This document shows, in pieces, positions 3,040-59,982 of a DNA stretch of 64,000 bases. The stretch is from Camelus dromedarius. Its lineage: Eukaryota. The stretch spans positions 45,138,001-45,202,000 of the forward strand of contig NC_087436.1 of the NCBI RefSeq assembly GCF_036321535.1, read 5' to 3'. The notes beneath the pieces are model-generated. The model worked only from the letters and a program-made list of their open reading frames with translations, had not been told where the DNA came from and ran no database searches. Position 1 is the stretch's first letter. Each line of letters opens with the position of its first letter. The position numbers were made by a program, and so were the translations under genes.

Positions 3040-3945
3040 GTCAAGCTTACAATGCCTGTGATTCCTCCAAACAGAGATATTCAAGAAAATAGTCTGAATA
3101 TTTGAGTCTGTACCTCAGAGAGAAGTCTGGAGAGAAGATGCAAATGTGAAAACTTCTAGCATATATGATATTTGAAGTCATTAAGTTAGGGGAGATCACT
3201 GTTGGGAGAAAGTATGGGGAAAAAATGAAGGTTGGATCAAGCCCTGTGGAGCTCCAACGTTTAGAGGTTGAATCAATAGAAAGAGTAAGAAGCCAGAAGA
3301 GTGTGACACCATGGATGCTAAGACAGAAAAATGTTTCCAGAAGAAGAAACTGATCAATGGTGCTGAATGCTGCCAGGAAGTTGAGTGAGATGAGAACAGA
3401 AATGTGCACACTGAATTTGGCCTGATCAGTTTCATTGACATGGTAGAGATGCACACCAGATTCGAGTGGCTCAAAAGCTGAATAGAAGGTGAGAAAGGGT
3501 AAGAGCACAGGTGGATTACTTTTTGAGTAACGTGGCCAGAGAGAGTGACAGAGAAATGAAGCCACAGATTGAGAGCTGAGGGAGGTAAGGGGTTAGTGGG
3601 GTTTTTTTTCTTTAAGAAGAAAAATATTATAGCATCTTTTATATTGATGAGAATAATGCAATAGAAAGAAAGATATTCACAATGTAAAAGATAAAGGAAG
3701 GACTGAAGTGTTTTAAAAGACCAGAAGGAATGAGATCCCAAGCAAAATTGGAGGGATTGTCCCTTGATGAAAGAATTAACTCTCTTTCTTTCCATATTTC
3801 TCTAAGAAAGAAAGAGATTCAGGTTATTTATAGATTTAGCAGTGAGAGTTCTCTGATGACTGTAATTTTTCTCAGTGATACATGAGATGGAGTCTTCTGC
3901 TGAGAACTGGGTAGGGAAGGGGGGAGAGGTAATGAGACCTCTGAG
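3040..3945 (-). mobile_element. L2 LINE ORF2 (reverse transcriptase) remnant
   Basis: Minus ORF 3047-3565 reads PLESGVHLYHVNET...SVLISLNFLAAFSTIDQFLLLETF, matching L2 RT (PLQSGFRPHHSTET...LDLSAAFDTVDH.LLL); a shifted frame gives GAPQG (RT GVPQG motif). Confidence 0.85.
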
Positions 3946-5349
3946 GAACAAGCAGACAGACAAAATAGTCATCGTGTAGAGTAGAAAAGTAAACTGAATA
4001 GTGTAACTAGGATTACAATTTTTGATATGTATTAATGTGCCTTTCTCTTGAATTTCCATGGACGTGACCATCTCTCTACTCAGCGGTATCCATCTACAAG
4101 GGAGAGTAAGTGCCAAGGGGCACAGGAGGGTGGAGATGAGGACAATTATAACAGGAATAGAAAGAAAGCAACAAATGTTCAGTTGAATCCCTAATAATAC
4201 CATAAGTTTGAAAAAACAGACTTTATCAAGAGAGAAAAAATTTTTTTAATTCCTTAAACTCTCAATAATGCATCAAAAGCCATTCTGGCTGATTTGATCA
4301 TCAAGTTTATTATCAGTAGAGAAACTCAAGATAGGGCACAGGAAAAGTCCCTGCCACATGAGGAGAAGAAGAGAAGCCCAGCTGATCCAGCCCTAGAAGA
4401 ATGTGGAAATGAGAAAGGGAAAAGGTAGAGCAAGGACTTTGTCTTTCCTCCCACTCCTCATGGGAACCCAATAGCGGCGGCTATAGGAACATTCTGATGG
4501 GTAGAGAGGCACTGGAGAACATTAGAGACAGCAGGCTGCTTCTCCAGGCAGAGCTTGGAGACACAAACCTCAGGCACAAGTCCCTCATTTGTCTCAGCAC
4601 CATGTCCAATTCACCTGGAATAAATTGCACACATATTACTACTGGTTTCTTAAAGCTCATGTGGAATATATGCAGATATAAAGATACTGAGAGGGCTGGT
4701 TGACCAGAAGACCCAGCACCATTAAAAAAGAGACTACAAAGCATGAGATCTGGGCAACCACATCATTAGCTAAGACTATAGATTTCACAAACAGATGCAC
4801 ACAGAATATCTCCAAAATGCCACAAGAGATCAGACACATCTCAATGGGTTCCAGTGCAAAGGGCCAAGGATCAATACAGATAAGACACCTCTCCAACCCA
4901 GCAAAGACAACAGGGATCTAGAATTTCAGTGAGTCTGAGGTCTTCTTGCCCTCTATCATAAAATCAGGTACGCTGCTTCATCTATCTAGAACCCATCATG
5001 AAAAGGAGCTAGAAAGAACGAAGAGATTTGAAAGACAAAGCACCTAAATGTTGTCCAAAGCAATGAAATCTGAAATTGAGATTCCATTCATTAAACTTTA
5101 TATCCAAGGTTCCCCTACCCAATATCTCATCTCCCCAATTTTTGCTTCTGCTACTGAGACCTGGGAGGGGGAGATGACATCTGTTACAGAAAATAAATAT
5201 TCACTTTTTTTTCTCAAATCAGAGCAATGGTGTTTAATATTTGGACCCAACAGTAAGAGGAAAAAAATCAAAGAATTTCTGGACTGTGTTCGAGCCCATT
5301 TGAAGTTGATGATCAAGAGTTTAAAACTGAATAAGTCAGCTTTACTGTG

Positions 5350-5665
5350 AATTTTTTTCCCCCAGTTTCAAGGGAATGGTTGGGTTCAATCAGGGTTGAG
5401 TCTTAGCCAGTCAAATGTGAAGAAGGAAAAGAGGAGCAAGGGAGTTTAGGGCATTAGCAAGGGAGTGATAATAATGATGGACCATGACATTATGCTGGAC
5501 AAGAAAGGAAATGAAGACGGGGGAACTGATGGATAGGGCATGTAGGGTCGATGGGCTGGAGGTCTCCATGACATTGAAGAATTGTTACAACGGGTGTACT
5601 AGAGCAATTGAGCTGGGAAAATAAGTGGTGGGAGTCAAAGAAGGGGATATTTAAAGATTTTAAAG
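5350..5665 (-). mobile_element. L2 LINE fragment
   Basis: Purine-rich L2-like motifs (GTAGGGTCGATGGGCTGGAGGTC, GAGCTGGGAAAATAAGTGGTGGGAGTCAAAG). Confidence 0.55.
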
Positions 5666-7774
5666 GCAGTGGTGACATCATTCACAGTATCTTATAGGTG
5701 TACAACTTACCAAGTACATTGACATGCACAATTGATGTATTCAACTATCTTTGCCTACAGAGAAAGAGAAATTTAGTGAAGTGATTACAAATTCAAAAAA
5801 TTAAGAGGGAAAATCTACATTTAAGTACACTTGGGAAATTTAGAAACAACCACGTAAATCCAAACACTAAAATACAAATCCATCATTTCTTTTCACTGAT
5901 ACACACTTCCTAAAAACCTAAACCACAATTTTTATTCAATTACTTAGCCGGCAATTTAGCTGATGAATTAGTGAAAGTTATTCCACTAGCTTGTTTACAT
6001 TTTAAAAAAATAGAATTGCTTTTGTTTTCTGTATTTTCAATTTAGACATCTTCATTGCAACTAAACCAAATTTAAAAATTTTGATCCAAATATCTAGATT
6101 TAAGGATATCAAATTGTATCCTTGCAATTTGCTTCCACTGAAGCACAATGATCAAACATTCTAATCTTCCCCATCTTGCCAACTGACCAGCAAAAATCAG
6201 TCGATCCCAGAAACAGACAGTAAGCCACCTCTGCAGACACTTTTTCTCCCTTTCAGTATCTGTTTCAGTTTCTGACAGTTTTTTCCATAACCCCACAAAA
6301 TGCAAACATTTCATTTTTGTAAAAAAGAAATCATTCTACACTATTTCTATACTTGAAATCTAAGACTTTCAGAAATTGATCAATAGAATAATTCTACATA
6401 CCCACTTTCAAAAGTAGAAATACTATTTGATGGCCAATTAAATCACCCATTAAAATGAGCAAAAATTAATGTAAAATTGTATTAATTCAAATTTTAAAAT
6501 GTTTTAGTTTGAAATATGTAGTGAAATGATGAAAACACTGTTTTTTTAACTATCATTAAATCAAAGGGTCACCCCGTGGAGGACAAAGGCCTGCTCTCTG
6601 GCCTTCTCAACTCTGCTAAGCCAGCCCGGTACTCAGAAATGATTTGAATTTGAATGCGCAGGACAGGCCACTCTGAAGTTCCCACAGTGCTCCCTACTCT
6701 TTGTTTTCAACCCAGTAACTCTGTTCCCTGCCGATAAATGATTTTTAATTGGTGGCCTGTGGTTTCAGTCAATCTCCGTGTTTCATACAGAGTCAGTTTA
6801 AATTGTATTGTTCTTATTTTCATTTTCCAAATTTTAAGCAATCTTAGCTTTTTACATTTAAGCTGCCTGTTTTCATATTAGAAGTGTCTACAATGCTTCA
6901 ATCTCTGCTAGACAACTGTTTGACCTGAATTCCGTAAGTAAGAACGTTATTGCCCAAAATTTGAGAAGACAAGATAATTTGTGTCTTCCAGTTTCAACCA
7001 CAAAGAAGTTAACCCATTTTTGCTAACATTTGAAAAAAATATACATGTATATGATTTTCTTAGATTCCAGTTCCTTGAGGCATCACTCAAACTTCACATG
7101 AGGTTCAGAGTGTAGTAATTAGCAGTAGGCTGCTTACATTTGCCAATATATTTGTACAAACATATGTTGGCACTCAGTTCCATATCAGCTACACATCAAA
7201 GGAGGGCGCTGAGGAGGAATTATTCCACCTCAGGGCTGGATTAGTGTCTCTGCCTGAAATAGGCCTCATTTAAGGCTATGGTTTGGGGGAAATTAAAGAA
7301 CTTGCATGGCCTGAGTACTGGAGTGAATCCATTAACAAAAAGCCGTGCTGAATATTTCTGCCATTCTTTTTCCGTTCCTGCTACGATGATCCTGGGGCAA
7401 GTTGTAAGCTCTTTTATCTTCAGTTTGCCAGTCTGCAAAAGGCAGACCATATAATTCTCTCCCAAACACCTCACCAGAGGATGGGCACATCAAGCATCCT
7501 CGTGTGCTGAAAGTCAGTGCTCCTTTCTGCTAACGTCCTTTTTCAGGCACTCGCAAGCCTTCCCATCGCCTCTCTCCACACCCTCCACACCTCCCTGCAA
7601 AGATTAAAGCCTGAGTCCCCAGCGCAGCCAAAACAAGAACCAAAGACAGAAAAATCTCCCTAATCTCACCACCTAAGAAAGGCTGGCTGTCTTTTCATTG
7701 CTGTGAATTTTAAAAGCACTACTGCCAAAATGAGTTCATATATTTTACGAGAAAACCAAATAATTGTAATAATC

Positions 7775-10767: not shown

Positions 10768-10856
10768 TTTTTTTTTTTTTAATGGAGATACTGGGGATTG
10801 AACAGAGGACCACATGTTTGCTAAGCACATGGACTACCAGTGAGCTATTCCCATCC
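10768..10856 (-). mobile_element. tRNA-derived SINE, camelid Vic-1-like
   Basis: Reverse complement: GGGAATAGCTCACTGGTAG...GTGCTTAGCAAACATGTGGTCCTCTGTTCAATCCCCAGTATCTCCATT followed by poly(A). Confidence 0.8.
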
Positions 10857-10861
10857 TGCAA

Positions 10862-11680
10862 GATTCTCTTTGAAGAGGTCTTAACAATGTCACATTTCCA
10901 CTTAGCTAGGTCCACCTTGGAGTCAGCTCAGGTCTAGGAGGCAAGGTCAGGTAGTATACCTTCTTGTCCCTACAGTAGTCCTCACACTTGGAACATTTAA
11001 GTGTGCCACTAGCACAACAAGGTCAGTTCTTCTCACTCTTGCAATTGTGAAGAGAAAAGGCACTGGAAAGGCAGGGCATTCTTCCTCCTTACTGCACCTT
11101 TGATGAACAGCTGTAGACATTTCTGCAGACCATCCGATTGTGGCATCTAGCCAGAATAAACCTGCCCCTGGTGCTGAAATTATTTTTGGCCACCATTGAG
11201 AGGCATTCCAACTGCCAGTGGAGTCATCCCTCCGGTGGTCCAGGAGCAATCAACACCCAAGTCTAGTCCCAGGCTCACAGCTCAAAGATCACACCTCTCA
11301 AGGGCGCCGTAACCACTTGTGTGCCCTAATTGTGCATGGTAGTTTTGGTGTCCCCTTGAGAGCACAGCTCCAAATAACATCCCTCTGCTGCAGAGTGAAG
11401 CTGGAGCTTGCCTCCTGGTCCACTGGGCCTGGGGCTTGCACACCCGCTAGACTTGGAGGTTACAGAGTTTTCAGGTTCTCTCTGCATCATACCATGACTT
11501 AGATTGAGCTGTAGAACTCATCCCAAAACCCTTGTAATTCCTCTTAGTTAGTGATGATAAATTTCCCTAACACGTTGATCACCATGTCACCCACACCTGG
11601 GTGACAGTTGTACTTCCTCAGGAGCCCCATCACCCAGATATGGGTGGCGTTTTCCTTCATCCAATTATGCAGAATTTATT
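10862..11680 (-). pseudogene. Candidate processed pseudogene, parent gene not identified
   Basis: GC-richer island with codon-like, GC3-rich minus-strand frames broken by stops and frameshifts (from 11660: MKENATHIWVMGLLRKYNCHPGVGDMVINVLGKFIITN*EELQGFWDEFYSSI*VMV*CRENLKTL*); no evident introns; matches no repeat family I recall. Confidence 0.6.
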
Positions 11681-20586: not shown

Positions 20587-21782
20587 AAAACAAGAATAAA
20601 CAAATGGGACCTAATTAAACTTACAAGTTTCTGCACAGCAAAGGAAACCATAAGCAAAACAAACAACAACCTGCAGAATGGGAGAAAATTTTTGCAGAAG
20701 ATGAAACCGACAAAGGCTTGATCTCCAGAATATATAAGCAGCTCATACGACTTAATAAGAAAAAAACAAACAACCCAATCCAAAAATGGGCAGAAGACCT
20801 AAATGAGCAATTCTCCAAGGAAGAAATACAAATGATCAATAGGCACATGAAAAAATGCTCAATACCACTAATTATCAGAGAACTGCAAATCAAAACCACA
20901 ATGAGGTATCACCTCTCACCAGTCAGAATGGCCATCATTCAAAAGTCCACAAATGACACATGCTGGAGAGGCTGTGGAGAAAAGGGAACCCTCCTACACT
21001 GCTGGTGGGAATGCAGTTTGGTGCAGCCCCTGTGGAAAACAGTATGGAGAGTCCTCAAAAGAGTAGGAATAGACTTACCATATGACCCAGGAATCCTGCT
21101 CCTGGACATGTATCCAGAAGGAACCCTACTTCAGAAAGACACCTGCACCCCAATGTTCATAGCAGCACTATTTACAGTAGCCAAGACATGGAAACAGCCT
21201 AAATGTCCATCGACAGATGACTGGATAAAGAAGAGGTGGTATTTTTATACAGTGGAATACTATTCAGCCATAAAAAACCGACAACATAATGCCATTTGCA
21301 GCAACATGGATGTTCCTGGAGAATGTTATTCTAAGTGAAGTAAGCCAGAAAGAGAAAGAAAAATACTGTATGAGATCACTCATATGTGGAATCTAAAAAA
21401 GAAAAGAAAAGAAAAGAAAAGAAAAGAAAAGAAAAGAAAAGAAAAGAAAAGAAAAGAAAAGAAAAAAAAAGAAAAGAACATAAATACAAAACAGAAACAG
21501 ACTCATAGACATAGAATACAAACTTGTGGTTGCCAAGGGGGCAGAGGGTGGGAAGGAACAGACTGGGATTTCAAAATGTAGAATAGGTAAACAAGATTAT
21601 ACTGTATAGCACAGGGAAATATATACAAGATCTTGTGGTAGCTCACAGCAAAAAAAAGTGACAATGAATATATGTATGTTCATGTATAACTGAAAAATTG
21701 TGCTCTACACTGGAAATTGGCACAACATTGTAAAATGACTATAACTCAATAAAAAAATGTAAAAATTTTAAAAATTAAAAAA
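20587..21782 (+). mobile_element. Young 5'-truncated L1 (ORF2 C-terminus + 3' UTR), camelid-type
   Basis: ORF 20718-21338 gives L1 ORF2 C-terminus with [18 protein letters not shown] and [24 protein letters not shown]-rich tail; TSD-like TAAAGGTAAACAGTCTA (20570-20586) / TAAATGTAAATAGTCTA (21783-21799). Confidence 0.95.
21401..21475 (+). repeat. (GAAAA)n microsatellite inside the L1 3' UTR
   Basis: About 13 consecutive GAAAA units seen directly. Confidence 0.95.
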
Positions 21783-21900
21783 TAAATGTAAATAGTCTAT
21801 ATATTACAAATAAAAGGCAGAGATTCTCACATTCGGATTTTAAAAAGCAACCAAACAATTTGCAGTAAAAGAACAACACTTATTAAAAATAAAAGGATGG

Positions 21901-22543
21901 TTTTAAAAAAAACTAAAAATAAAGTTACCATATGATCCAGCAATCCCACTCCTGGGCATACATCCAGAGAAAACTCTAATTGAAAAAGATACATGCATGC
22001 CAATGTTCACAGCAGTACTATTTACAGCAGCCAAGACATGGAAGCAACCTAAATATTCAGTGACAGATGCCTGGATAAAAAAAGAGATGCAATGGAATAC
22101 TACTCAGCCATAAAAAGGAATGAAATAATGCCATTTGCAGCCACATGGCTGGACCTAGAGATTATCATACTAAGTGAAGTAAGTCAGAGAAAAGACAAAT
22201 ATATGATATCACTTATACGTGGAATCTAAAAGCTGATGCAATTGAACTTATTTACAAAACAGAATCAGATTCACTGATGTAGAAAACAAACTTATGGTTA
22301 CCAGGTAAGAAAGGGGAGTAGGGGAGGGTTAAATTAGAAGTTTTGGATTAGCAGATACAAACTACTATATATAAAATAGGTGAACAACAAGGTCTTACTG
22401 TATAGCACAGGGGACTATATTCAATATCTTATAATAACCTATAATGAAAAAGAATATATATGTGTAACTGAATCACTATCCTATACACCAGAACCAAACA
22501 GAATGTTGCAAATCAACTATACTTCAATTTAAAAAAAAAAAAA
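21901..22543 (+). mobile_element. Second 5'-truncated L1 3' end
   Basis: TTACCATATGATCCAGCAATCCCACTCCTGGGCATA...GCCAAGACATGGAAGCAACCTAAAT...AATCAACTATACTTCAAT followed by poly(A); TSD-like AAAATAAAAGGATG / AAAGTAGAAGGATG. Confidence 0.9.
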
Positions 22544-23079
22544 AGTAGAAGGATGAGAGAAGCTTTGCAAACACTAATCAAAAGAATGCTGGAGAAGTTA
22601 TACTAATAAAGTAGATTTTGGTACAAGGAATATTACCAAGATAATATTCAATCATGTCAATAATAATGAAAGATTAAAATGTATCAAGAAGAAATAACAA
22701 CACTGACTATGTAGGCACTTAACTGTAGAGCTTTAAATGCACAGGCAAAAACTAACAGGACTAAAACAAAAAATAGAAAAATCCACAAGTGTGGTTAGAG
22801 ATTTCAAAAAAATCCTCTCTCAGTAAGGTTATAGAATTACTAGACAAAAAGTCAATAAGGATATAAAAAATTTGAACAAAACCATCAACTAACTCCACCC
22901 AGTGACAGTACAATACATATTTTTAAACCACAATAGATTGTACTCTGGGCCATGAAACAGATACCAACAACTTTAAAAGAATTGAAGTCATACGAAGTAT
23001 GGCCTTTGACCAAATGAAATATGACATGCAGATTCCAAGGCCCATAGGGCGCTCTAAGAAAGGCTGGTTTTCATCCATT

Positions 23080-26924: not shown

Positions 26925-27385
26925 TTTTGCATCACAGTATAGAGATCTGAACACACTCTAAGTATTGAAAATCGAGGAAATGTAATGCAAGGAATTGGTT
27001 ACACAGGTGATGGAATTGCTGAGAAACCAAACAGGAGAAAGTGAAGAAACCCAGAAATTAGCAAAAGCAGTAAGGCACTCCTTGTGCTGGAGCAGCATTA
27101 TCCGAGGCCAGAGAATTGTGTCACCCCAAAGAAGGTGGAATCACTGCAGCCTGTCCAGCAGGGGCTGGGGTCGCAAAGGTTGTGCAGCTGCCCAATGCAA
27201 AAAATAGCTTGGTTGCTCCCTTCCTCCTGCCCTTCAGTCTCCCACCGCTGCCTCCTCTTGCCAAAACTCAGAAGGAAGGCAACTGTGTGGGAGCCTGAGA
27301 TGCAGCCTGCTAAGATCAACTTCCCTGAGGCATAGAGGAAAGGCTGGGGAAGGATGAGGAATAGATCTGGACCTGCAGCACAAGA
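26925..27385 (-). mobile_element. ERVL LTR (LTR33-like)
   Basis: CACACTCTAAGTATT...GGAATTGGTTACACAGGTGATGGAATTGCTGAGAAACCAAACAGG resembles recalled LTR33 sequence. Confidence 0.55.
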
Positions 27386-27878
27386 GTCAAGGACCAGAAT
27401 GAAGATTTTCATCCACTCTTCAACATGCATACAAAATGAGCACCTGCTATGGGCCAGGCAGTCCACACTGGGGCAGACATAAGTAACACAACAAACCCCG
27501 AAGAAGCTAAGATGTTTTGGAAGGGATAGATATGTACGCACATACTTAACCACCCTGCGTGTGAAAAGTGATAAGATACATGAGAACTCAGAGAAGGGAG
27601 TGGCAGCCTGGGAACGGCGCTTTTCATATAGTGACTACGCTCATTTAATTCCCTCAGGAAAAATGTTAAAATGGCGTATCTCGGGTTGGAAACACAGAAT
27701 TTGTATTCTTATCGCTGAAATCTCTTCTCTTTAAAACCCATGAAAAGGTCCTAAAGAAATTATTGTGGCTCTTTCTATTTCTTGTTCCCCATGATCAAAT
27801 GACTTCTGTCATCGTTGAGGGATTTTGACTGTCTCTGGAAAATGATGGCTAGAATAACCCAACCAAAATGAATATTGC

Positions 27879-28048
27879 GGTAAGGAGGCCATTAAGCTGG
27901 AAAGTCACCCAGCCAAAAGCGCCTTGGTAGACTACGAGTCAAGTAAGGGGTGAGGGGAAGGAAAACACATTCAGCCTTTGCAAATGTAAGGAGATTTTCC
28001 AGTGAAGCGACAATAATTTAATTACAAAAATGCTTCTGATACTGCTAC
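27879..28048 (+). repeat. Left arm of long-range inverted repeat (partner 30078-30278)
   Basis: Base-by-base manual check: 27879-28030 is complementary to 30278-30127 at 122/152 positions with no gaps; 28028-28048 is perfectly complementary to 30098-30078. Confidence 0.95.
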
Positions 28049-30077
28049 CCATGAAATCTTTTTTGGCAAAAAGACTGACAGAGTAAGTAGAGCAGGCTCG
28101 GTGATTACCGATAGGTTTGAATTAGAGCCAGATTAAAGGTACTATACTGGCTTACCGTGTAGGGTGCTTGAAGCAGTGGCCAAATGTTCAAGCCTGAACC
28201 CTCTCGCTAGCATCTAATCTAAGGCCACCATGTTCTGTCAAGGCATATTAACAAGTTTTAAGTTAGTGGGCTGAACATCAACATTCTTCTCTCCTGATTT
28301 ATTTCCCATTAGGACAAAATACTAACCTGAGTCTGATTGATTTCTATGGCAAAAATCGAATGTTAACCGCAATCATGCTAGACGACAGAGTGATCATTTT
28401 TAAAGAGTAAGTCATACTCACCATCAAGACCCACCGCACCATGGCAGGTCTTCATTGCCCCACGGTGCTTTGTGTTCTGTAGCCAAAGTCTTAACAGCCC
28501 GTAAAGGCTGATAAACACCTTGTGTTTAATAGCATACTGAGAATGCAATCACCATTAAGTGATTTTTAAGCCTGGGTGTGGCTCCATTTATATCAGTTCG
28601 TTCTTTTTTTTTTTTAATGACACTTTGTGTTTTATTGGGAACCATCCAGATTTTTATTTAAAACAGAAATGCTAGGGAGAAAAAAAAACTAAAAAAAGAA
28701 AAAAAAAGACACAGTTTCTGTTCTGGACCATTAATTTTTCAGTCAGATCTAACTATCATTTAATTGGTTCCTGATGCTAAAACTTGGATTCCACTTTAAA
28801 CGCTTGAAACTAGAGCATATAGAATAATTTGGTATGCTGAGCTATTCATCCCAAGTGTCCAGGGAAAATAAACCAATCTCAAAATAAAACTGGGCTACCT
28901 TCTGTGATGACACAAAATTAATAATATAGTCTAAGAAATAAACCTGGTGTCTGTTTGCCCAAAAAAAAAAAATCATTAGGCTTTCCATGATGAAGTAATA
29001 TTTAATTCATATTAATGTTTAATGTAAAAGGAGGTCTGTTAACTGGAAAACACAAAAATTCTATGAACATAAACTTTAGAAATCCACCAAATTTAATAAG
29101 ACTCAAACTCGTAATTCAGATAAACTTGCTTTTTTTGAGTATTTAAATAAGTTTTTGGTCCTTCTTTCTTCTTTTTATAGATCAATTAAAATAAGTTCTG
29201 GTAATATTTACTCCTATACTTAATTTCTAGAAAGAAATTTAAACTTCCCAAAGATTTCAAGGCAGTCTACACTGCTACTTTACAACTCGAAATCTAAAAA
29301 GGGAAAAACTTTATAGACATGACTTTTTTATGTAAGAATAGAGGGGAAAATTATTAGATAACTTAATTTAACCAGCAAGGTGGCTTGGGAGATCTGCATT
29401 GTAAATAGGTTTCTGTTCACACCAAACAGTCAATTTGTAATCTGGCTCAACTAAGCAGCTCAGAAAAACAACCTCTGAACAGGAATTCCACACATGCAGA
29501 TAAGCACTAGTGAAAATCTTTGTGGAATAACTGCTAGTTCAGCATGAACCCAGGGCAATTTGGTAACCCGTCCTCTGGAGAGATGCCAAATTGGTTAGAT
29601 AATTGCTCTAGGCTGAATGAAGCCCTGGAAGTGCTAAAATCCAAAATTCTTCGGAGCTGTTTAAGGATCGGTTGTAGGTCCTCAGCTACTGACCGTGCCA
29701 CAATGCCGGCTATGTTTTGGTAGCTTCAGTAACCGCAAAGTATTTTGTACATCAAGAGCTCCCTTTACCCCTGAAATGAAGTTTAAAGACAACATCGTGG
29801 AGCCGTTTTCTCGCGGTTGAAACTCCAAGAGAAAAAGGAGGCATGTGATGCACGATGTATTTAATTTAGGAAAGGTAGGGCATAAAGTTTCCTCATCTCC
29901 TGAAAATATTTTAGAAATATATTAATAAAATTCATCTTATTGTTATTTTAACACCAACCCCCAACCAATACTTTCATCCAGATGTAAAGTACGAACTATA
30001 GATGTATTTTTATCACTTTTTCTACTAATCAGCTCCTGATGAGTTGTTTTCCATTGTTTCTTTTCCATCAGTTTCAA

Positions 30078-30278
30078 GTAGCAGTATCAGAAGCATTTAG
30101 CAGTATTAGAATTTTTAGTAATTAATTTTTTGTAATTAAATTACTGTCGCCTTACTGGAATATCTCCTTACATTTGCCAATACTGAGTTTGTTCTCCTTC
30201 CCTTCACCAGCTCCTTGCCTTGGAGTCTATGAAGGTACTCTTGGCTGTGTGGTTTTCCAGCCTAATGGCCTTCCCACC
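30078..30278 (-). repeat. Right arm of long-range inverted repeat (partner 27879-28048)
   Basis: GTAGCAGTATCAGAAGCATTT...TTTTTGTAATTAAATTACTGTCGCCTTACTGGAATATCTCCTTACATTTGC... is the reverse complement of the left arm, with an extra ~28 nt at 30099-30126. Confidence 0.95.
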
Positions 30279-30329
30279 AACATACCAGAATTCTTGTGTT
30301 GATTTAACTATCTCCCCTGGTTTTTCTTT

Positions 30330-31160
30330 CTAGCAACAGCTTCCACTGGCAAGATGACTCGTTAGCTTCACAGACTAGTCTGACTCAATGCCAAGAATTC
30401 ATCACCTTTGCTCCCCCAAAACCTCTTCTACTTCCTGTGTTACCTAGCTCAGAGAACAGCAGCAGGTCGCAAGACAGAAAACTGGCCAAACTGCGAGACT
30501 CCACTTGCTCCCCCATCCCCCACGTCTCTTCCTGCATCCCGTCCAGTGGACCCCCAGTGTGCCTCGGGTTCATCTCATCATTTTCACCCTTCGCCCATTG
30601 CCTTCGCTGAGGACTTTGTAAGTTTTGCCTGGACGATTGCAGTCCTCCTCTACTGTCTCCCTCCATCTCCCACTTCCTTCCTCTTTGCTTTAACACTCTG
30701 GCCAGGCAGGTCCCTCCACTTCAAAAAGTCATCAGTGGCTCCAAACGCCTACTGTCTAAATTCTGAACTCCTTGGCAGGCCTTACTGGGCCTTCTGGGCC
30801 CCATCTCTGGCCAATCTCCATGTTTATTCCAATCTGCATTTCCCTAAACTTCTCATTTTCTTTTTATCTTTGAGCTTGCTGCTTCCTCTCCATGGAATAT
30901 CTTTCCCATTCCACCCTGTACAGCCTTCCTGGAGAATTCCTCACAGGCTCAGTTCTTCTGCCTTCCAGAGGGAACCCTTCCACCTCCAGCCCCGGTGGCA
31001 GGGCTTTCCCTGCCCTTCATTCCTGAGCACGACTGCACCCTCTCTAAGGACACTCACCCACTGCCAGGAAGTCGGCAGTTTAGGGAGAGTTGCGTGTTTC
31101 CTGAAGGCTGGGATTTTTTTTTTCTTCTCAATTTTTGAAATCCTTGCATCTAATGCAAGT
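30330..31160 (+). mobile_element. L2 LINE 3' region
   Basis: Pyrimidine-rich L2 motifs (GAATTCATCACCTTTGCTCCCCCAAAACCTCTTCTACTTCCTGTGTTACCTAGCTCAG; TCAGTGGCTCC; AAATTCTGAACTCCTTGGCAGG). Confidence 0.7.
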
Positions 31161-34185: not shown

Positions 34186-35300
34186 GACCCAACCCTGAAG
34201 AGTCATCCCAAACAGAGCGTCCCCTTCTTCCTCCACCTGCAACGATTTTCCAGAACTTCAGTGTAATAATGAGGCTCTTGTTCCACCTGAACTGCAAGCC
34301 CGTTTCTGAGGCACTAAGTCACCAGCCACGCCTAAAAATAGGAGGCACAAGCCCAAAAATTGCTTCCAAAGACTCTCTACTCCAAAGTCACTAGCCTTAT
34401 GAATAGATTACTGCTGTTTTTTAAGCACTTGCTCTTAAGACAAGTGTAAGAACTCGTTTGTAATTAAAAGAAACATTACCTTTAATAGGAAAATATCAAT
34501 CCATGAGAAATAAATGGTCTCTGCCCCTTTAGAGAAATCGTGTACTTTGGGGCATGCTAAGACTATTGCATCACTTTCAAACTTGAGATATGAAAAAATG
34601 ATCAAAGTCTTACTGTCTGTTTTAATGATAGTTTGAAAGGGACAGTTAAGAGCGAATTTCTCAATTCTCTCTTCATTTACCTATCTTAGTAGTCACTGCA
34701 TTAGTAAAGGAAGAGGACACGAGATCTGAGGTTAAAATGACTCATACCCAGTTCTAATAAAAACTGTGTTGAATGTATGCATGGAATTTATTTGGATTAA
34801 TATTACTCACAGTAAAGATACCAGGAAAAACATCCCACGTGATGGGAGATTTGAGGTTCTCACCACTGTCCAGAGCATGTAGACAGACCATCCAGTAGCT
34901 ATGTTACATTCTAAGGGCACGTCAAACATCTTGTATGTGTCAACATTAAATAGGGATCTGGAAGCGAGTTCGAAAATCCCTAAACTAAGTTTATTTGCGG
35001 GCTTAACCATATAAATTGCAAAAGAAGAGAGAAACTCCTCTACAATGTAACACACTACAAACAGCCATCCAGAAATGTATTTCATCAGCTGAGCAGGATC
35101 CCCTTGGCAGGCCATCTCCCAAGGGTAAGCTGCAGCATCTGTAACATCTCCAACTCCGGGAGGAAGATGACATTCTCTGAATCTTAGACGGACTGTATTT
35201 TCCCCTTAGAACAAAAAGCCTCATCCTAGAGCACAGGCTTCATCAGTTTTATTACCACCGCCAAACCCTCCCATCTCTGTTCCCCCAGATGTGTGTCCTA

Positions 35301-43086: not shown

Positions 43087-44462
43087 CCTTAGAATGTTTT
43101 ATTAGTCCAAGAGCTCTGATTTATCTAGTTAAACATCCAAGACAGCTAATAAGCCTTTTCATTTCCTCACATTAGCAATGATAAGCTACTTGAAAAATAT
43201 ACGTTGCATTAAAAAAAAAAAAGGTCGCAGTAAATAAACTCAAACTAAAAGATGCAGAAAAAAAACTCTATCATTTAATTCATCTTTTATGAATTTTTTT
43301 TTTCCTATTTTTCATTGATTTTTTGTTTCCTTCTGTTTCTAGTGATCAAATGATGAAGTTTTCAGAGCGCTGGCCTAATGTAAATGAGTTCCCTTCGTCT
43401 TTAATTGTATGAGACACATGCGAGCCCAGAAATCTGAGTTACAGATTTACATGTATTAATCTTTGTGAGAGCAGCATTCTCCAAGTAGCATGCAAGCCAC
43501 ACGTGACAGTGCTGGGTGCCACAGGCAGGCATAAGTTGTTTACATTAGCAAATACATTTCAACAAAAACACATGTTGGCAGTTAGCACTCTCTCAGCTCC
43601 TCACACAAGCCATTCTATGGGGAGTTAGAAGAATTTGAATTTGAAGAGTTTTTTTTTAATATGTGGTTCCTAACAACCATCTGAAGATCTCCAAGTATTT
43701 TGGATATGTTGGATTTTCAGTTCACCATATAGTACAAGGAGTTAACGTGACCAATCCAAAAACCATAAAGTAAGAAATTTAAAGCTCCTCAGGCCACCCT
43801 TTGAGTGCATATCTTGATAGGAACACATTTCAAGGAAAGGCTTGGGGAAAACATTATTCAGAAACCAACAGAAACAACCTGTGTTGTGGAAATGGCGACA
43901 GAAACAGTCCAGATGAGTGCAGTTCTGAAGAGCCGAGGGGGGGGTCATTAAAGTGACACAGGCTGAGGACAAGCAAGCAAGCCATCTCCATAAGGAAGGA
44001 CAAATACTCGGCTGGTAGAGCCAACCTCTTGGTACAAAATGGAAATACTTCTGTATTGATTGGTAAACTGATGATACTCTGAGCCCCCATAGTGCCATCT
44101 CCCTGTTCGGGCCACCCCTGACACTCCCCCCAGGCACCCTCGCCCTCCCCAAAACCCATCCTGCGGCTACAGAGGCAGCACCACACAGAGCAGGGAGCTC
44201 CCGGGCTCTGCTGATGCGTGCAGTGATCAGGGAGCTCTTCCAATGGCCAGGCCCAGCCGCATAGTCTGCTGAGTGTTTGGAATGTCACCTCTGCATCCAT
44301 CTAGGCTAGGCTCAAAAATAACTCACAAGGAATGAAATAAATTCCAGGTGATTTTAGCCCATTACTAAAGTATTTAACGTCTTAGTTTCACATCAATATA
44401 TTTTTGTTCTGGAATGAAATGTCCTTTAACAGGTATACCTTTTTTAAAGCGGGGGTACACAC

Positions 44463-44960
44463 CTGCAGAGACCTCGTTTCTAACAGCAGCATTGGCGTTG
44501 GCAGCATCCAGGGGTCATCGTGGTCGCAGTCGCGGTCGTGGTTGTATTGCCACCACTCCCGGGCCTGGCTTCTCGCCTTGCACCTCTCTCCTAACTAGAG
44601 AGAGAACTATGGGCCGCCGGACTGCTGGTTCTCTTTCCCTCAGAGCGAGCATTTAAAGGAGCATACAGTGGCTCGGGGGGAAAAAGTGCATAAAAATCAC
44701 AAACTCTAGAGTTGGAAGGTGAAAACGTTCACAATCTCTTTTTTTCACCTTTCTTTCAAAGTGTTTGTTTCTGCTCTAGTGAAAGAAAGTTGCTGCCAAT
44801 GCAAGTATCCCGATGGGCTATCAATGAACCGCGTTGCAGACGCATCAGCCGGGAGTGTCCTCTTGAGTGATCATCTCCTTCAAGCCTTTTTGGCTCATCA
44901 AGAGAGAGGGCGGGCCGAGGACTCTCGGAGCCCTGCGCAGTCCGGCGCAGCGTCCAAACT
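44463..44960 (-). promoter_or_regulatory. Candidate CpG-enriched promoter / first exon (minus strand)
   Basis: Local CpG enrichment, no recognisable repeat; GC box GGGCGG at 44908-44913; TATA-like TTTAAAT (minus, 44657-44651) 31-34 nt upstream of Inr-like CCAGCAGTCC; donor CAG/GTGTGT at 44463/44462. Confidence 0.4.
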
Positions 44961-47028
44961 CCTGTGTGAAGCCACCTGACTGTCTGAAGTAGGTTCAGCC
45001 AGTCACAGTCTCTACCAACTTTTTCAAGTCCCCACCTTTCAGACCTGCTTATTTGGTTTTGCTGTTGTCAGATTCACACTCCTCAGTTCTCTCCAGCTCC
45101 GTGTTTTTGTTCTCTGCCAGCTCCCTTAGCTGAGGGCGTTACTTGTTCCTTTGCTTCCTCCTGTTCCACCCTTGACCCCCAGCATCCCTTGGCGTGAGAC
45201 CCTGCAACCTCGGGACAGTCGCTCCCACACACCAACCCCAGCACCTGCAAGACCAGCCTGAGTAGCCCCCCTCCTCCTATCCCAAAAACTGCTTGCTGGC
45301 AGGGGTGAGAGGGGGCCGGGTTTTGTCCACATCAGTAGGAGTTTTTCACAGAGGGAGTCGCTGACCTCAGCATCATTCACTTCCTATCCCCTTGTACTGA
45401 CATTTAACCAGCTAACTACCTTGAAGCACCAGTTCTTTATAAGTTACCTTCTCAGGGCTCTGGAATCCCTGCTTCCCCAGGGCTAAAAATTATTAATAAC
45501 AATAGTGGTGGGTAAGAATGAACATTAAAAAAAAGACATTTTAAGATCTATGCAGAAAGAAAGAGGATTCAAATAAATGTATCCATAGTTTGAAGCAAAA
45601 AAAGAGTTCACTTTTATATACCTCTTTTTTATGTAGCTACTAGTAAAGAAGTCCTATTCAAAATAAGCCCCAAAGGCATGCGTCCAATGGAAAGTTCCTT
45701 TTCACTTTTTTAGATTATTCATTTTTTAGAAATTCTAGAAAATGATATTAATTTAGTGTCCAAGACTTTGCTTGAGCTTTGAGTCCTCTCATCCAAATTC
45801 TGATGGGGTTTACAATGTAAAGAGGATTAACTTTAACATTTAATTTAAGCACTCTAAGGATTATATTATCCATAAATGTCAGTAAATAAACATTATCTTT
45901 ATCCTTTGGTATACAGGATGTAACACTCTTGAACTTCACCTGTTTCAGTAACGGTTGGCAAGTTTAGTGTGGGATGGGCCTTTTTAAGAAACTAATATAA
46001 CCAAAAATGCGGGTCAAAGATCCATCTGGCACTTAAATGGTTCGTTTTCTCCATTTACTCTAGACTTACGTAAGTTCTGGGTTTTAGTTAATCAACCCCA
46101 CAACAATATAGCTAATTTTTCCCAGAAGTGGAAATCTTTGCCTTCAACCATTTGTATTCAGATTTTTGTATTTCAAGTAACTTCTTTATATAAATCCCTG
46201 CTGGTGAGAAAGAAACACTAAATTAGATCTACCTTGGCAACAGGAATATCCAGTCTAAAAAGCTTTGCTTATCAACTTATTCTTTACCACAAATATTTTC
46301 CTTTTGCTTCTTCCTAGTTTTATGATCACATTCCTTGTTGTTATGACTCTGCTAAAGATCTGGTTATAAATTCATCAGAACTAGTGCTCTCGAGAACTTA
46401 CCTGTACAGTTCATCATCTCTGACCACTATCTTGAATCTCACCACTACTGAATTATAGTACAAAGATAAGAAAGAATTAGATTTCCAGCATCACCCAAAG
46501 TCTTATTTTCTTTGTTTGTCAATTATTTCATTTTGCACTCATAGAACAATAGAAACATCAGGATTTTACTTTACCTATAAAATGCTTACAGAACGTCCAG
46601 TGACTTCATGTAGAAATAGAACAACAAAATAAGATAAGGTGTTAGAGATGTTGCCAGACATCTTAAAGAACTGGAATATCTAAAAGTAGAGCTGAGGAAA
46701 GAACAGCCAGTGCTCACTTTTCCAATGTCCCAAATCAAAATTTTCACTTCTGAAAACAGCAAAACAGAAAGATCTGCTTTTCCATAAATTATCTTTAAAA
46801 CTGAAAGCTTTCGATCCATTCCCCCAAAATATATTAATAATAAAAACTACCATTAATTACAGCATAGTATCAGCCACCTTTCAGGAGTGTATCTGTTCCT
46901 CCTCCCCCCATGCTGTCCCCTCACTGTTTCCCTAGGACTCCCCCACCTTGTTATGTCTCTTTATTTAAAAGGGGCAGCACATAAGCTTTCATTTCACCTC
47001 AGTCTGTGTACATCGTGGGAAATCTTGG

Positions 47029-52100: not shown

Positions 52101-53376
52101 GTTCCAGCACAACCTGCTGGTGACATTCATTTACCAACAGTGAGAACAAGTCCCAGCGAGGTAAGAACTGACCACTACTTTCTGAAATATATGTATCTCT
52201 GTGATTTAAGTACCATGTTAATTTCTTTATTAACCCACATCTGAGGGCTCTGGTTTAAATCCTAAAAGCAAGATTGCTTCTGTGACAAAACCCAAAGCTA
52301 ACTTATTTTAGGCCTTCAATTTTTCTGTGTCTAGTCATAGCATCTTCTACCCTTTACAATGGAACCATTCTTTATAACACTCTTGAGTATAATTAGACAG
52401 ATAATCCTCTTATTCTGAACCACTATTAAAATGAGCAAATCCGAGTCTCCCATTAATAAACCAATGAATGGAAGTCTTCTGAATTCAGGCGCTGGTGGAA
52501 GAACTCATGTGTTTCCAAAATGGTAAAGAATGAAATATTTTCTTTGCAATGTCATAATTTGAAAGGCAGAGTCACAGTCTCTAAGATACTGAAAAAGAAA
52601 AAGTAACTTAAGTTTTATTCCAAACATTACCAAAAGTGGTAGAAACAGTTATGTGATGAAAGACAGAGAACTGTCATCTGTTACTGGATCAGACATCTAT
52701 CATTTGACCAGCTATAAGTCAGATGTTTTTTTACTGTAGAGTGTCCTTTTTTTCCCCCACATCTGTTATAATCCCCTACAAACACCACAGAGTTCATATA
52801 AAACTCATTTTAGGAAACAGATGTGAGGGCACTTTACAGTATAAAGTAATATATAGATGCAAGATGTTCACACTCCTGCAAGCATCAACACTTTCTTCTG
52901 AAGGAGTATTTTGCTCACTTTGACTCACCACAGGACCAGCGTAATTGCCTGAGTGCTGAGAGGATTTTGTTTTATGTTCATTGTTATATAGTTCGTGTTC
53001 CCATTTCATCTTTTAGGTCTTTATCTTGATTCTTTGATTTGTTTGCTGAATTTTCATTTTGCTTGCTCAGGAATAAAAATCTTCTGTTTATGATCCCTCT
53101 GCTGCACATCTTTTCTCATTCCACAGCATGGAATTGTTGGTGAATCCTTAAAGGCTTCTTTGAGGGGAGCACATGGGTTGGAAGAAGTGACTTCCGGTGT
53201 TCTTTCATTGCTGATTGACTTAGGAAGTTTTGGAAGATAAGAGAACAAGTTAGTTCAATGGGTGGACTGGAGGTACAAGAGGGCAGGGAACCTCAACCTC
53301 ACATTCTGCCTTCAAACACTGGGAAGCATTTGGAGCACCTACTGAAACACAGATTTTTTTCTTCAAACAAGGTTTT

Positions 53377-53466
53377 GAGGGGTGGGTATAGCTCAGTGGT
53401 AGAGTTCGTGCTTAGCATGCATGAGGTCCTAGGTTCAATCTCCAGTACCTCCATTTAAAAAAAAAA
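53377..53466 (+). mobile_element. tRNA-derived SINE, camelid Vic-1-like
   Basis: GGGTATAGCTCAGTGGTAGAGTTCGTGCTTAGCATGCATGAGGTCCTAGGTTCAATCTCCAGTACCTCCATTT followed by poly(A). Confidence 0.9.
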
Positions 53467-59856: not shown

Positions 59857-59982
59857 GAGGAAGGGTATAGCTCAGTGGTAGAGTACATGCTTAGTGTGCA
59901 TGAGGTCCTGGGTTCAATCCCCACCACCTCCATTAAAATAAATAAATAAATAAACCTCATTGCCCACCCACACCCAAAAAAA
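59857..59982 (+). mobile_element. tRNA-derived SINE, camelid Vic-1-like
   Basis: GGGTATAGCTCAGTGGTAGAGTACATGCTTAGTGTGCATGAGGTCCTGGGTTCAATCCCCACCACCTCCATT + (AAAT)n + AACCTCATTGCCCACCC tail. Confidence 0.9.

Follow-up and report, generated by a model that had tools for sequence, protein, structure and literature searches.

A long imperfect inverted repeat, lying about 40 kb upstream of PITX2 within a 64-kb window (the whole stretch of DNA analysed, from whose first letter positions are counted), is best read as an old inverted duplication that copied one portion of a constrained and probably enhancer-like element, the right arm being a spare copy. We give this reading a probability of about 55%. 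An inverted-duplicated enhancer had been among the candidates of a preliminary description of this DNA, and the present reading comes close to it. As a repeat the structure is ordinary; its value is as a specific and testable lead to a candidate enhancer some 40 kb before PITX2, whose dosage matters in the development of the eye, the heart and left-right asymmetry. The gene desert of PITX2 is reported to be the main atrial-fibrillation risk locus and to be affected by patient deletions (PMC4416339; PMC11032321; 10.1101/772426). Moreover, the duplicate provides a natural experiment on the fate of a copied enhancer module. Our literature search, thin in subscription journals, found no published account of this repeat, of any inverted repeat at PITX2/4q25, or of conserved non-coding DNA upstream of PITX2 in camel.

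In the core of the repeat, 27879-28030 is the reverse complement of 30127-30278, with 122 of 152 positions matching in an ungapped alignment. The mismatches comprise 19 transitions and 11 transversions; nine of them would be G-U pairs in a plus-strand RNA and ten in a minus-strand RNA. A perfect 21-mer is shared by 28028-28048 and 30078-30098, and its overlap with the core at 28028-28030 gives an aligned length of about 149 + 21. On recount, the match count, the coordinates, the 21-mer and both G-U counts were exactly those of the preliminary description. Its statement that the arms contain no indels held for the core but failed beyond it, where the right arm carries 31 inserted nucleotides between core and 21-mer (30099-30129, a degenerate additional copy of the inner 33-nt unit), and where the outward extension contains a 1-nt gap. 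The arm pair is far above chance, with a BLASTN E value of 3e-33 within the window. The weak extension described as reaching about 27844/30312 is alignable but not above random, as outside 27879/30278 seven of 60 random stretches scored as well under permissive gap costs, and the outer limit of the arms is therefore soft. Aligning 1.4 x 1.6 kb under permissive settings yielded scores at noise level, and longer arms were not supported. The features referred to below are as follows.

27879-28048, plus strand: left arm, the likely parent copy (core 27879-28030 and 21-mer 28028-28048), from the alignment and the left orthologues P0001, P0004 and P0002.
30078-30278, minus strand: right arm, the inverted copy including the 31-nt insertion, from the alignment and the right orthologues P0003 and P0006 (outer part).
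27844-27878, plus strand: the left arm's weak outward extension, which pairs with 30279-30312; aligned but not above random.
30279-30312, minus strand: weak outward extension of the right arm, aligned but not above random.
30099-30129, minus strand: right-arm insertion of 31 nt, also in P0003 (5 nt shorter), with left orthologues lacking it.
28049-30077, no strand assigned: loop or spacer of 2029 nt, single-copy in the genome search, with no Rfam match at E ≤ 1.
28005-28088, no strand assigned: constrained block that begins in the inner left arm and continues into the loop, a candidate cis-regulatory element, from P0001 and P0002.
28014-28024, no strand assigned: TAAT-TTA-ATTA, a putative P3-type paired-like homeodomain dimer site, left copy, from the motif scan and the residues of P0001 and P0002.
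30133-30143, no strand assigned: putative P3-type site, right copy, from the motif scan; altered in P0003.
30144-30180, no strand assigned: right-arm stretch of which about 27 nt appear to be missing in P0003 (frameshift-aware fit), and which contributes to the longest predicted duplex helices.
28422-28688, minus strand: exon-like segment within the loop, with a strong polypyrimidine tract and AG, a GT donor and no open frame.
27549-27766, plus strand: outer flank, rich in CpG; contig C27 has a single copy of it, 87% identical, surrounded by direct repeats of about 22 nt.

The mismatches are unevenly spread along the arm, with 4 in the inner 69 columns versus 26 in the outer 101. Within the 152-nt core alone this unevenness gave p = 0.067, with 8 of 69 control stretches as uneven; with the 21-mer added, a block chosen for its perfection, it gave p = 0.002, with 1 of 52 control stretches as clean. 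The right arm of this genome has thus changed slowly in its inner part as well (the same 4 mismatches in 69 columns, matched by 1 of 52 controls), which pure drift explains poorly.

The window spans 45,138,001-45,202,000 of contig C1 in a 2.3-Gb mammalian genome, which looks camelid-like from its tRNA-headed SINE. The copy number of the repeat was determined in this genome. Each arm yielded two candidates, itself and its partner, and the 23-mer common to the arms, allowing up to two mismatches, occurred in both arms and at one unrelated place; such a search could miss a family that is very old, low in copy number and less than about 70% identical. The loop found itself and one 61-nt A-rich match. 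Two control repeats from the window, which we take to be MER2-like and MER5-like, gave 3122 candidates (best 80–85%) and 164 candidates (mostly 70–78%). With arms in two copies and a loop in one, the structure is therefore neither an ordinary repeat pair nor a transposon family. A repeat-family origin was rejected on these counts when set against the high-copy controls, and the earlier impression that the arms are no ordinary SINE, LINE or MER pair was borne out by their presence in only two copies.

Exon-like frames were scanned across 264 kb around the repeat. A homeodomain exon with 46 residues identical to PITX2 was found 56.7 kb downstream of the repeat, the first large CpG island of PITX2 lies 39.7 kb downstream, and ENPEP exons lie beyond PITX2. 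The repeat is thus located in the gene desert 5' of PITX2, outside any coding-gene intron, a position that does not support the premise of intronic ADAR editing or back-splicing in the preliminary description. In human, some 1.5 Mb are reported to separate PITX2 from the next coding gene on its upstream side, an interval in which all known transcripts are non-coding (10.1101/772426); a lncRNA host for the repeat is possible. Within 23-36 kb of the window, none of the 150 frames scanned (from 167 frames of at least 40 aa) reached the Pfam cut-off, and seven weak matches (E 0.017–0.042) were taken as chance; an origin from a coding exon or pseudogene was rejected on this result. The observed/expected CpG ratio is 0.46–0.56 at 27501-28500 versus 0.22 over the window, a hint of low germline methylation.

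The mismatch pattern of the repeat is neutral-like. For comparison we used 126 repeat alignments at the locus, 59 of which had at least 120 columns and 74–88% identity; removal of the repeat itself left 58. The transition share was 0.63 (19/30) in the repeat versus 0.61 in these 58 control pairs, which are not mutually independent. The controls carry 9.8 substitutions per gap, and at this rate the probability of a gap-free run of 150 columns in 200 is about 0.12. Since a block of this kind is expected in about 12% of neutral pairs of equal identity, gap-free divergence of 20% needs neither selection nor gene conversion, contrary to what had been proposed.

A profile of one chance open frame running through both arms retrieved three proteins at E ≤ 0.001 among 1.84 billion. 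A second protein search gave four among 5746 candidates, two of them new, and two further searches found no homologues through other frames or lengths. In metagenomes, the DNA of the 23-mer gave no matches and an 18-mer gave 50 loci, all 50 of them chance matches without flanking similarity. P0001-P0006 are predicted chance frames from short contigs, and the comparison is one at residue level between few sequences. Their unique flanks identify P0001/P0004 and P0002 as left-arm orthologues and P0003 and P0006 as right-arm orthologues, with P0005 covering the right flank only; the informative cross-species sequences number three (P0001 with its near-twin P0004, P0002 and P0003). The 69% residue identity of P0001 corresponds to about 15% DNA divergence, and hence the sequences come from other species, presumably mammals.

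On these residues, both arms are present in other genomes within orthologous flanks, and the duplication is therefore old. In the outer part, P0003 agrees with the right arm at 21/32 residues and with the left at 19/32, the arms agreeing with each other at 19/32; P0001 agrees with the left arm at 17/34 and with the right at 16/30. The outer arms are thus about equally far from each other as from their orthologues and the insertion is shared with P0003, which suggests an old duplication, probably made shortly before these lineages split. The insertion itself is also old, as P0003 has a version of it that is 5 nt shorter, while none is present in the left orthologues. In a frameshift-aware fit, P0003 matched the right arm better than the left (220.8 vs 172.6) and appeared to lack about 27 nt within 30144-30180, the partner of the longest helices; the deletion is known from one 818-nt contig and may represent an assembly error or a lineage loss. 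Taking P0003 as a right arm without the insertion, with an anchor distance of 69 nt versus 70 in the left arm, fitted worse than an insertion with a deletion and was rejected. P0003 differs at two residues over the right P3 site and retains all six residues that cover the right 21-mer. In this genome, only two derived changes can be seen among the residues of the right arm's inner 16 codons.

Constraint on the left side is indicated by P0001, which displays 28 consecutive identical residues over 28088 to 28005, within 81/116 overall (permutation p = 0.00015, an optimistic value since the search profile covered the conserved block, and residues hide synonymous changes). This run reaches 40 nt past the arm into the unpaired loop. 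By segment, the identical residues of P0001 number 38/51 for the loop, 20/23 for the inner arm and 17/34 for the outer arm (inner versus outer, p = 0.005). P0002 retains 29/34 residues over 28052-27951, with two changes inside the block. At residue level and in these few sequences, the inner end of the left arm therefore changes more slowly than its flanks, and the constraint is not tied to pairing, because the conserved run continues into a loop that has no partner.

This block contains TAAT-TTA-ATTA at 28014-28024. Across the 64-kb window, TAATYNRATTA matches there and at the counterpart in the right arm (30133-30143) and nowhere else; over 264 kb these are two of three matches. The motif is not enriched: the two occurrences stem from one duplication, the chance mean is 0.74 and 17 of 100 shuffles reach two. 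The residues over the left site are unchanged in P0001, and those of P0002 are compatible with an intact site. TAAT-NNN-ATTA has been described as the P3 site, bound cooperatively by ALX4, PROP1, ARX and PHOX2B and not strongly by PITX3 (PMC13530268). Both arms carry an exact TAAT-TTA-ATTA in common with the P3 sites of paired-like dimers (ALX4, PHOX2A/B, PROP1, ARX; PMC13530268, PMC12102336); unlike the bound sites reported in PMC13530268, those here are putative sites, and the motif is not enriched. Alx1-null mouse embryos are reported to have less Pitx2 in the periocular mesenchyme (PMC8815032). A direct Alx1-Pitx2 link through the P3 site is plausible, and the site described here would give a direct route for that dependence of Pitx2 on Alx1.

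The block shares its locus and side with the published elements of the PITX2 gene desert (human 4q25; CE4-CE15, 10.1101/772426; AF1-AF7, PMC4416339) and, like them, is a short constrained non-coding block with a motif for a developmental transcription factor. However, the accessible text of these two sources describes no inverted duplicate for CE4-CE15 or AF1-AF7, and the atrial-fibrillation elements lie about 170 kb out, compared with about 40 kb for the block described here.

The following sequence of events explains these data best. An old local inverted duplication, presumably of roughly early-placental age, probably copied about 170–240 bp to a site 2 kb away, and the copied piece took in the edge of a constrained non-coding element that lies in the gene desert before PITX2. 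To this element the left copy presumably still belongs, an element that would extend from 28005 to at least 28088, past the arm and into the loop. The element most likely acts as DNA, that is, as an enhancer module in which a paired-like homeodomain dimer (ALX/PHOX2/PROP1 type) would bind TAAT-TTA-ATTA, and its target may be PITX2, at a distance of about 40 kb. As a spare copy, the right arm would be drifting and is apparently in part deleted in at least one other lineage, and the capacity to fold back would be a by-product of the duplication.

The repeat might instead be a wholly neutral relic, its inner part being cleaner by chance or through an old tract of arm-to-arm gene conversion, an account that we regard as unlikely. 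The neutral-like mismatch spectrum and gap rate are consistent with it, as are the non-significant unevenness of the core alone and the conversion-like strata of a second inverted duplication at this locus, 3' of PITX2. Against it, the 28 unchanged residues of P0001 reach outside the arm, beyond the reach of conversion, and none of 23 codons has a change that is common to both arms and absent from both left orthologues. Conversion hence leaves no positive sign in this shared-codon test, which would not register conversion if a constrained left arm were the donor. The conversion-homogenised inverted repeats described in PMC1803023, with which the Y/X palindromes are classed, likewise have two copies, a spacer and uneven arm identity, but in them each arm resembles its partner more than its orthologue, whereas the outer arms here are about as far from each other as from their orthologues; on this and on the 0/23 shared changes, the repeat does not behave as a gene-conversion palindrome. 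The second inverted duplication, between PITX2 and ENPEP (L023:3830-4305 / 5359-5840; 23 mismatches in 476 columns, 1.05-kb spacer), fits that class far better than the repeat upstream of PITX2. It consists of fragments of old repeats, one fragment crossing the boundary between left arm and spacer, and it has 4 mismatches in a 332-column tract versus 19 in the other 144 (reached by 0 of 150 permutations), which is the pattern expected of arm-to-arm conversion (mechanism: PMC1803023). Such repeats therefore arise and become partly homogenised at this locus without evident function. It is also conceivable, though we consider it quite unlikely, that both copies are working enhancer modules, with two P3 sites 2.1 kb apart serving PITX2, kept in this genome and lost in some lineages. 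The P3 site is intact in both arms, which hold the only two in the window, and the few visible derived changes in the inner right arm and the six unchanged residues of P0003 over the right 21-mer point in this direction. Conversely, P0003 has an altered right P3 site with about 27 nt apparently deleted beside it, and conservation past the arm is seen on the left only.

There is no sign that the repeat is kept for folding into double-stranded RNA. That selection has maintained long-range pairing within a non-coding transcript, whether as an ADAR substrate or to loop out or circularise 28422-28688, is in our judgement improbable. Either transcript could form a duplex, as had been claimed, with predicted core energies of about -187 kcal/mol on both strands (-186.6 for plus and -188.9 for minus). 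These values fall at the 58th and 44th percentile of a null in which mismatched bases were swapped between the arms at random, and with G-U counts of 9 and 10 no mismatch skew preserves pairing on one strand. With the inner block included, the predicted energy is -212 to -214 kcal/mol, and whole-region folds contain 202 and 174 pairs spanning more than 1900 nt. The exon-like segment in the loop, whose splice-like signals on the minus strand were scored by an approximate splice matrix, would be in keeping with such a duplex. Furthermore, the C27 copy of 27549-27766 lies between direct repeats of about 22 nt (2 of 1917 null pairs score as high) and looks like an L1-mobilised RNA from the plus strand, though a clear poly(A) tail is absent, which suggests past plus-strand transcription beside the left arm. 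Some words of the repeat region occur in 15 of 24 listed sequencing runs, one of which is recorded as RNA (share 0.08), and four runs guessed to be RNA (they may be DNA) hold 22–32% of the words of 27400-30600, word shares being no evidence of transcription. The duplex is stable and within the range of edited non-repetitive human dsRNAs, for which a median of 144 bp and -184.8 kcal/mol is reported (PMC11838218). Its arms of unique sequence around a kilobase loop likewise resemble the dsRNAs predicted by dsRNAscan, and its size and energy are near the edited medians; that source gives 4,597 edited and 492,832 unedited non-repetitive human dsRNAs (PMC11838218). In contrast to the edited members, the duplex here is a predicted one, there is no strand bias and the helix is apparently broken in one orthologue. 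Selection on pairing, as proposed in the preliminary description, is not supported, given the lack of a favoured strand and the P0003 right arm, which appears to have lost about 27 nt of the best helix. Moreover, there is no host coding gene, any 80% inverted repeat folds equally well, the conserved block enters the unpaired loop, and Rfam gave no matches at E ≤ 1 in 27300-30700, its only matches in the whole window being three tRNA-like SINE heads. A combined version, in which both arms would be selected in many mammals and the inverted arrangement itself would matter, with the two homeodomain-site modules folding, in a non-coding transcript through a PITX2 enhancer, into a duplex that is edited or promotes circularisation and so adjusts PITX2 dosage, and with the helix lost in some lineages, strikes us as very improbable. 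Least credible is that the arms are the terminal inverted repeats of an ancient DNA transposon of about 2.4 kb (MULE-like, with long TIRs), as had also been suggested. The geometry fits, the 80% arm identity is near the 80–85% of the best copies of a presumably DNA-transposon-like repeat in the window, and long-TIR transposons (MULE/Pack-MULE, Ricksha) likewise have long inverted ends around some 2 kb. Unlike those, the repeat has no family, target-site duplication or transposase remnant that we could find: arms and interior have no further copies, identity fades outward with no sharp end, and no convincing direct repeat surrounds the whole or either arm (three 9-mer near-matches occur in the outer flanks, none at both ends). 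No transposase domain was present among the 150 of 167 frames scanned in 23-36 kb, where a badly broken gene would escape detection.

A consensus fold of the inner unit from two sequences was uninformative. One of three local hairpins tested, at 28380-28520 on the minus strand, gave z = -2.4. Local duplications recur around this locus, with the second inverted and one direct duplication within 100 kb.

Between PITX2 and ENPEP lies a second inverted duplication, which is younger than the 27879/30278 inverted repeat of the window. A direct duplication and a palindrome were also found in neighbouring stretches (each with its own coordinates):

L023:3830-4305 and 5359-5840 (G000:C1:45,255,830-45,257,840), inverted duplication
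L024:2454-2690 and 3891-4130, direct duplication, 240 nt, 81% identity, 1.2 kb apart
L022:1499-1547 (joined coordinate 113499-113547), near-perfect palindrome, 49 nt, 86%

The inverted duplication is built from pieces of old repeats and extends over 476 aligned columns, with its arms separated by a 1.05-kb spacer. With a 332-column tract at 99% identity and flanking ends at 87%, the profile reads as a clean conversion signature; a toggling inversion is possible. The corresponding human region carries the lncRNA PANCR (10.1101/772426), and the duplication could therefore be an edited duplex. The palindrome is located 3' of PITX2, ∼320 nt from the sole P3-type site (TAATYNRATTA) in the 264 kb other than those in the arms of the window repeat.

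The CpG-rich flank of the window repeat has a single copy elsewhere in the genome, on contig C27:

window 27549-27766, CpG-rich flank
L006:1501-1853 (G000:C27:17,718,599-17,718,951), its copy, 87% identical

Direct repeats of ∼22 nt bracket the C27 copy, whose host element we take to be MIR-like, and the copy was later split by a ∼127-nt L1 3' end. The two copies have kept 7 and 8 CpGs.

Further features were located within the window:

44450-45250, CpG-rich patch, o/e 0.68 and GC 0.53 at 44501-45000
29501-30000, another patch with retained CpGs, within the loop of the inverted repeat, o/e 0.60, GC 0.40
2043-2143, 10769-10876, 53375-53466 and 59859-59954, tRNA-headed SINE copies
20619-22546, two L1 3' fragments, nested or adjacent, 77% to each other

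The patch at 44450-45250 could act as a promoter or an enhancer. On the minus strand, strong splice donors are predicted at 46402 and 14448, and another donor-like site lies near 34808; together these sites suggest a lncRNA heading away from PITX2. Three of the four SINE copies score as tRNA (Rfam), and one L1 fragment holds a 239-aa open frame.
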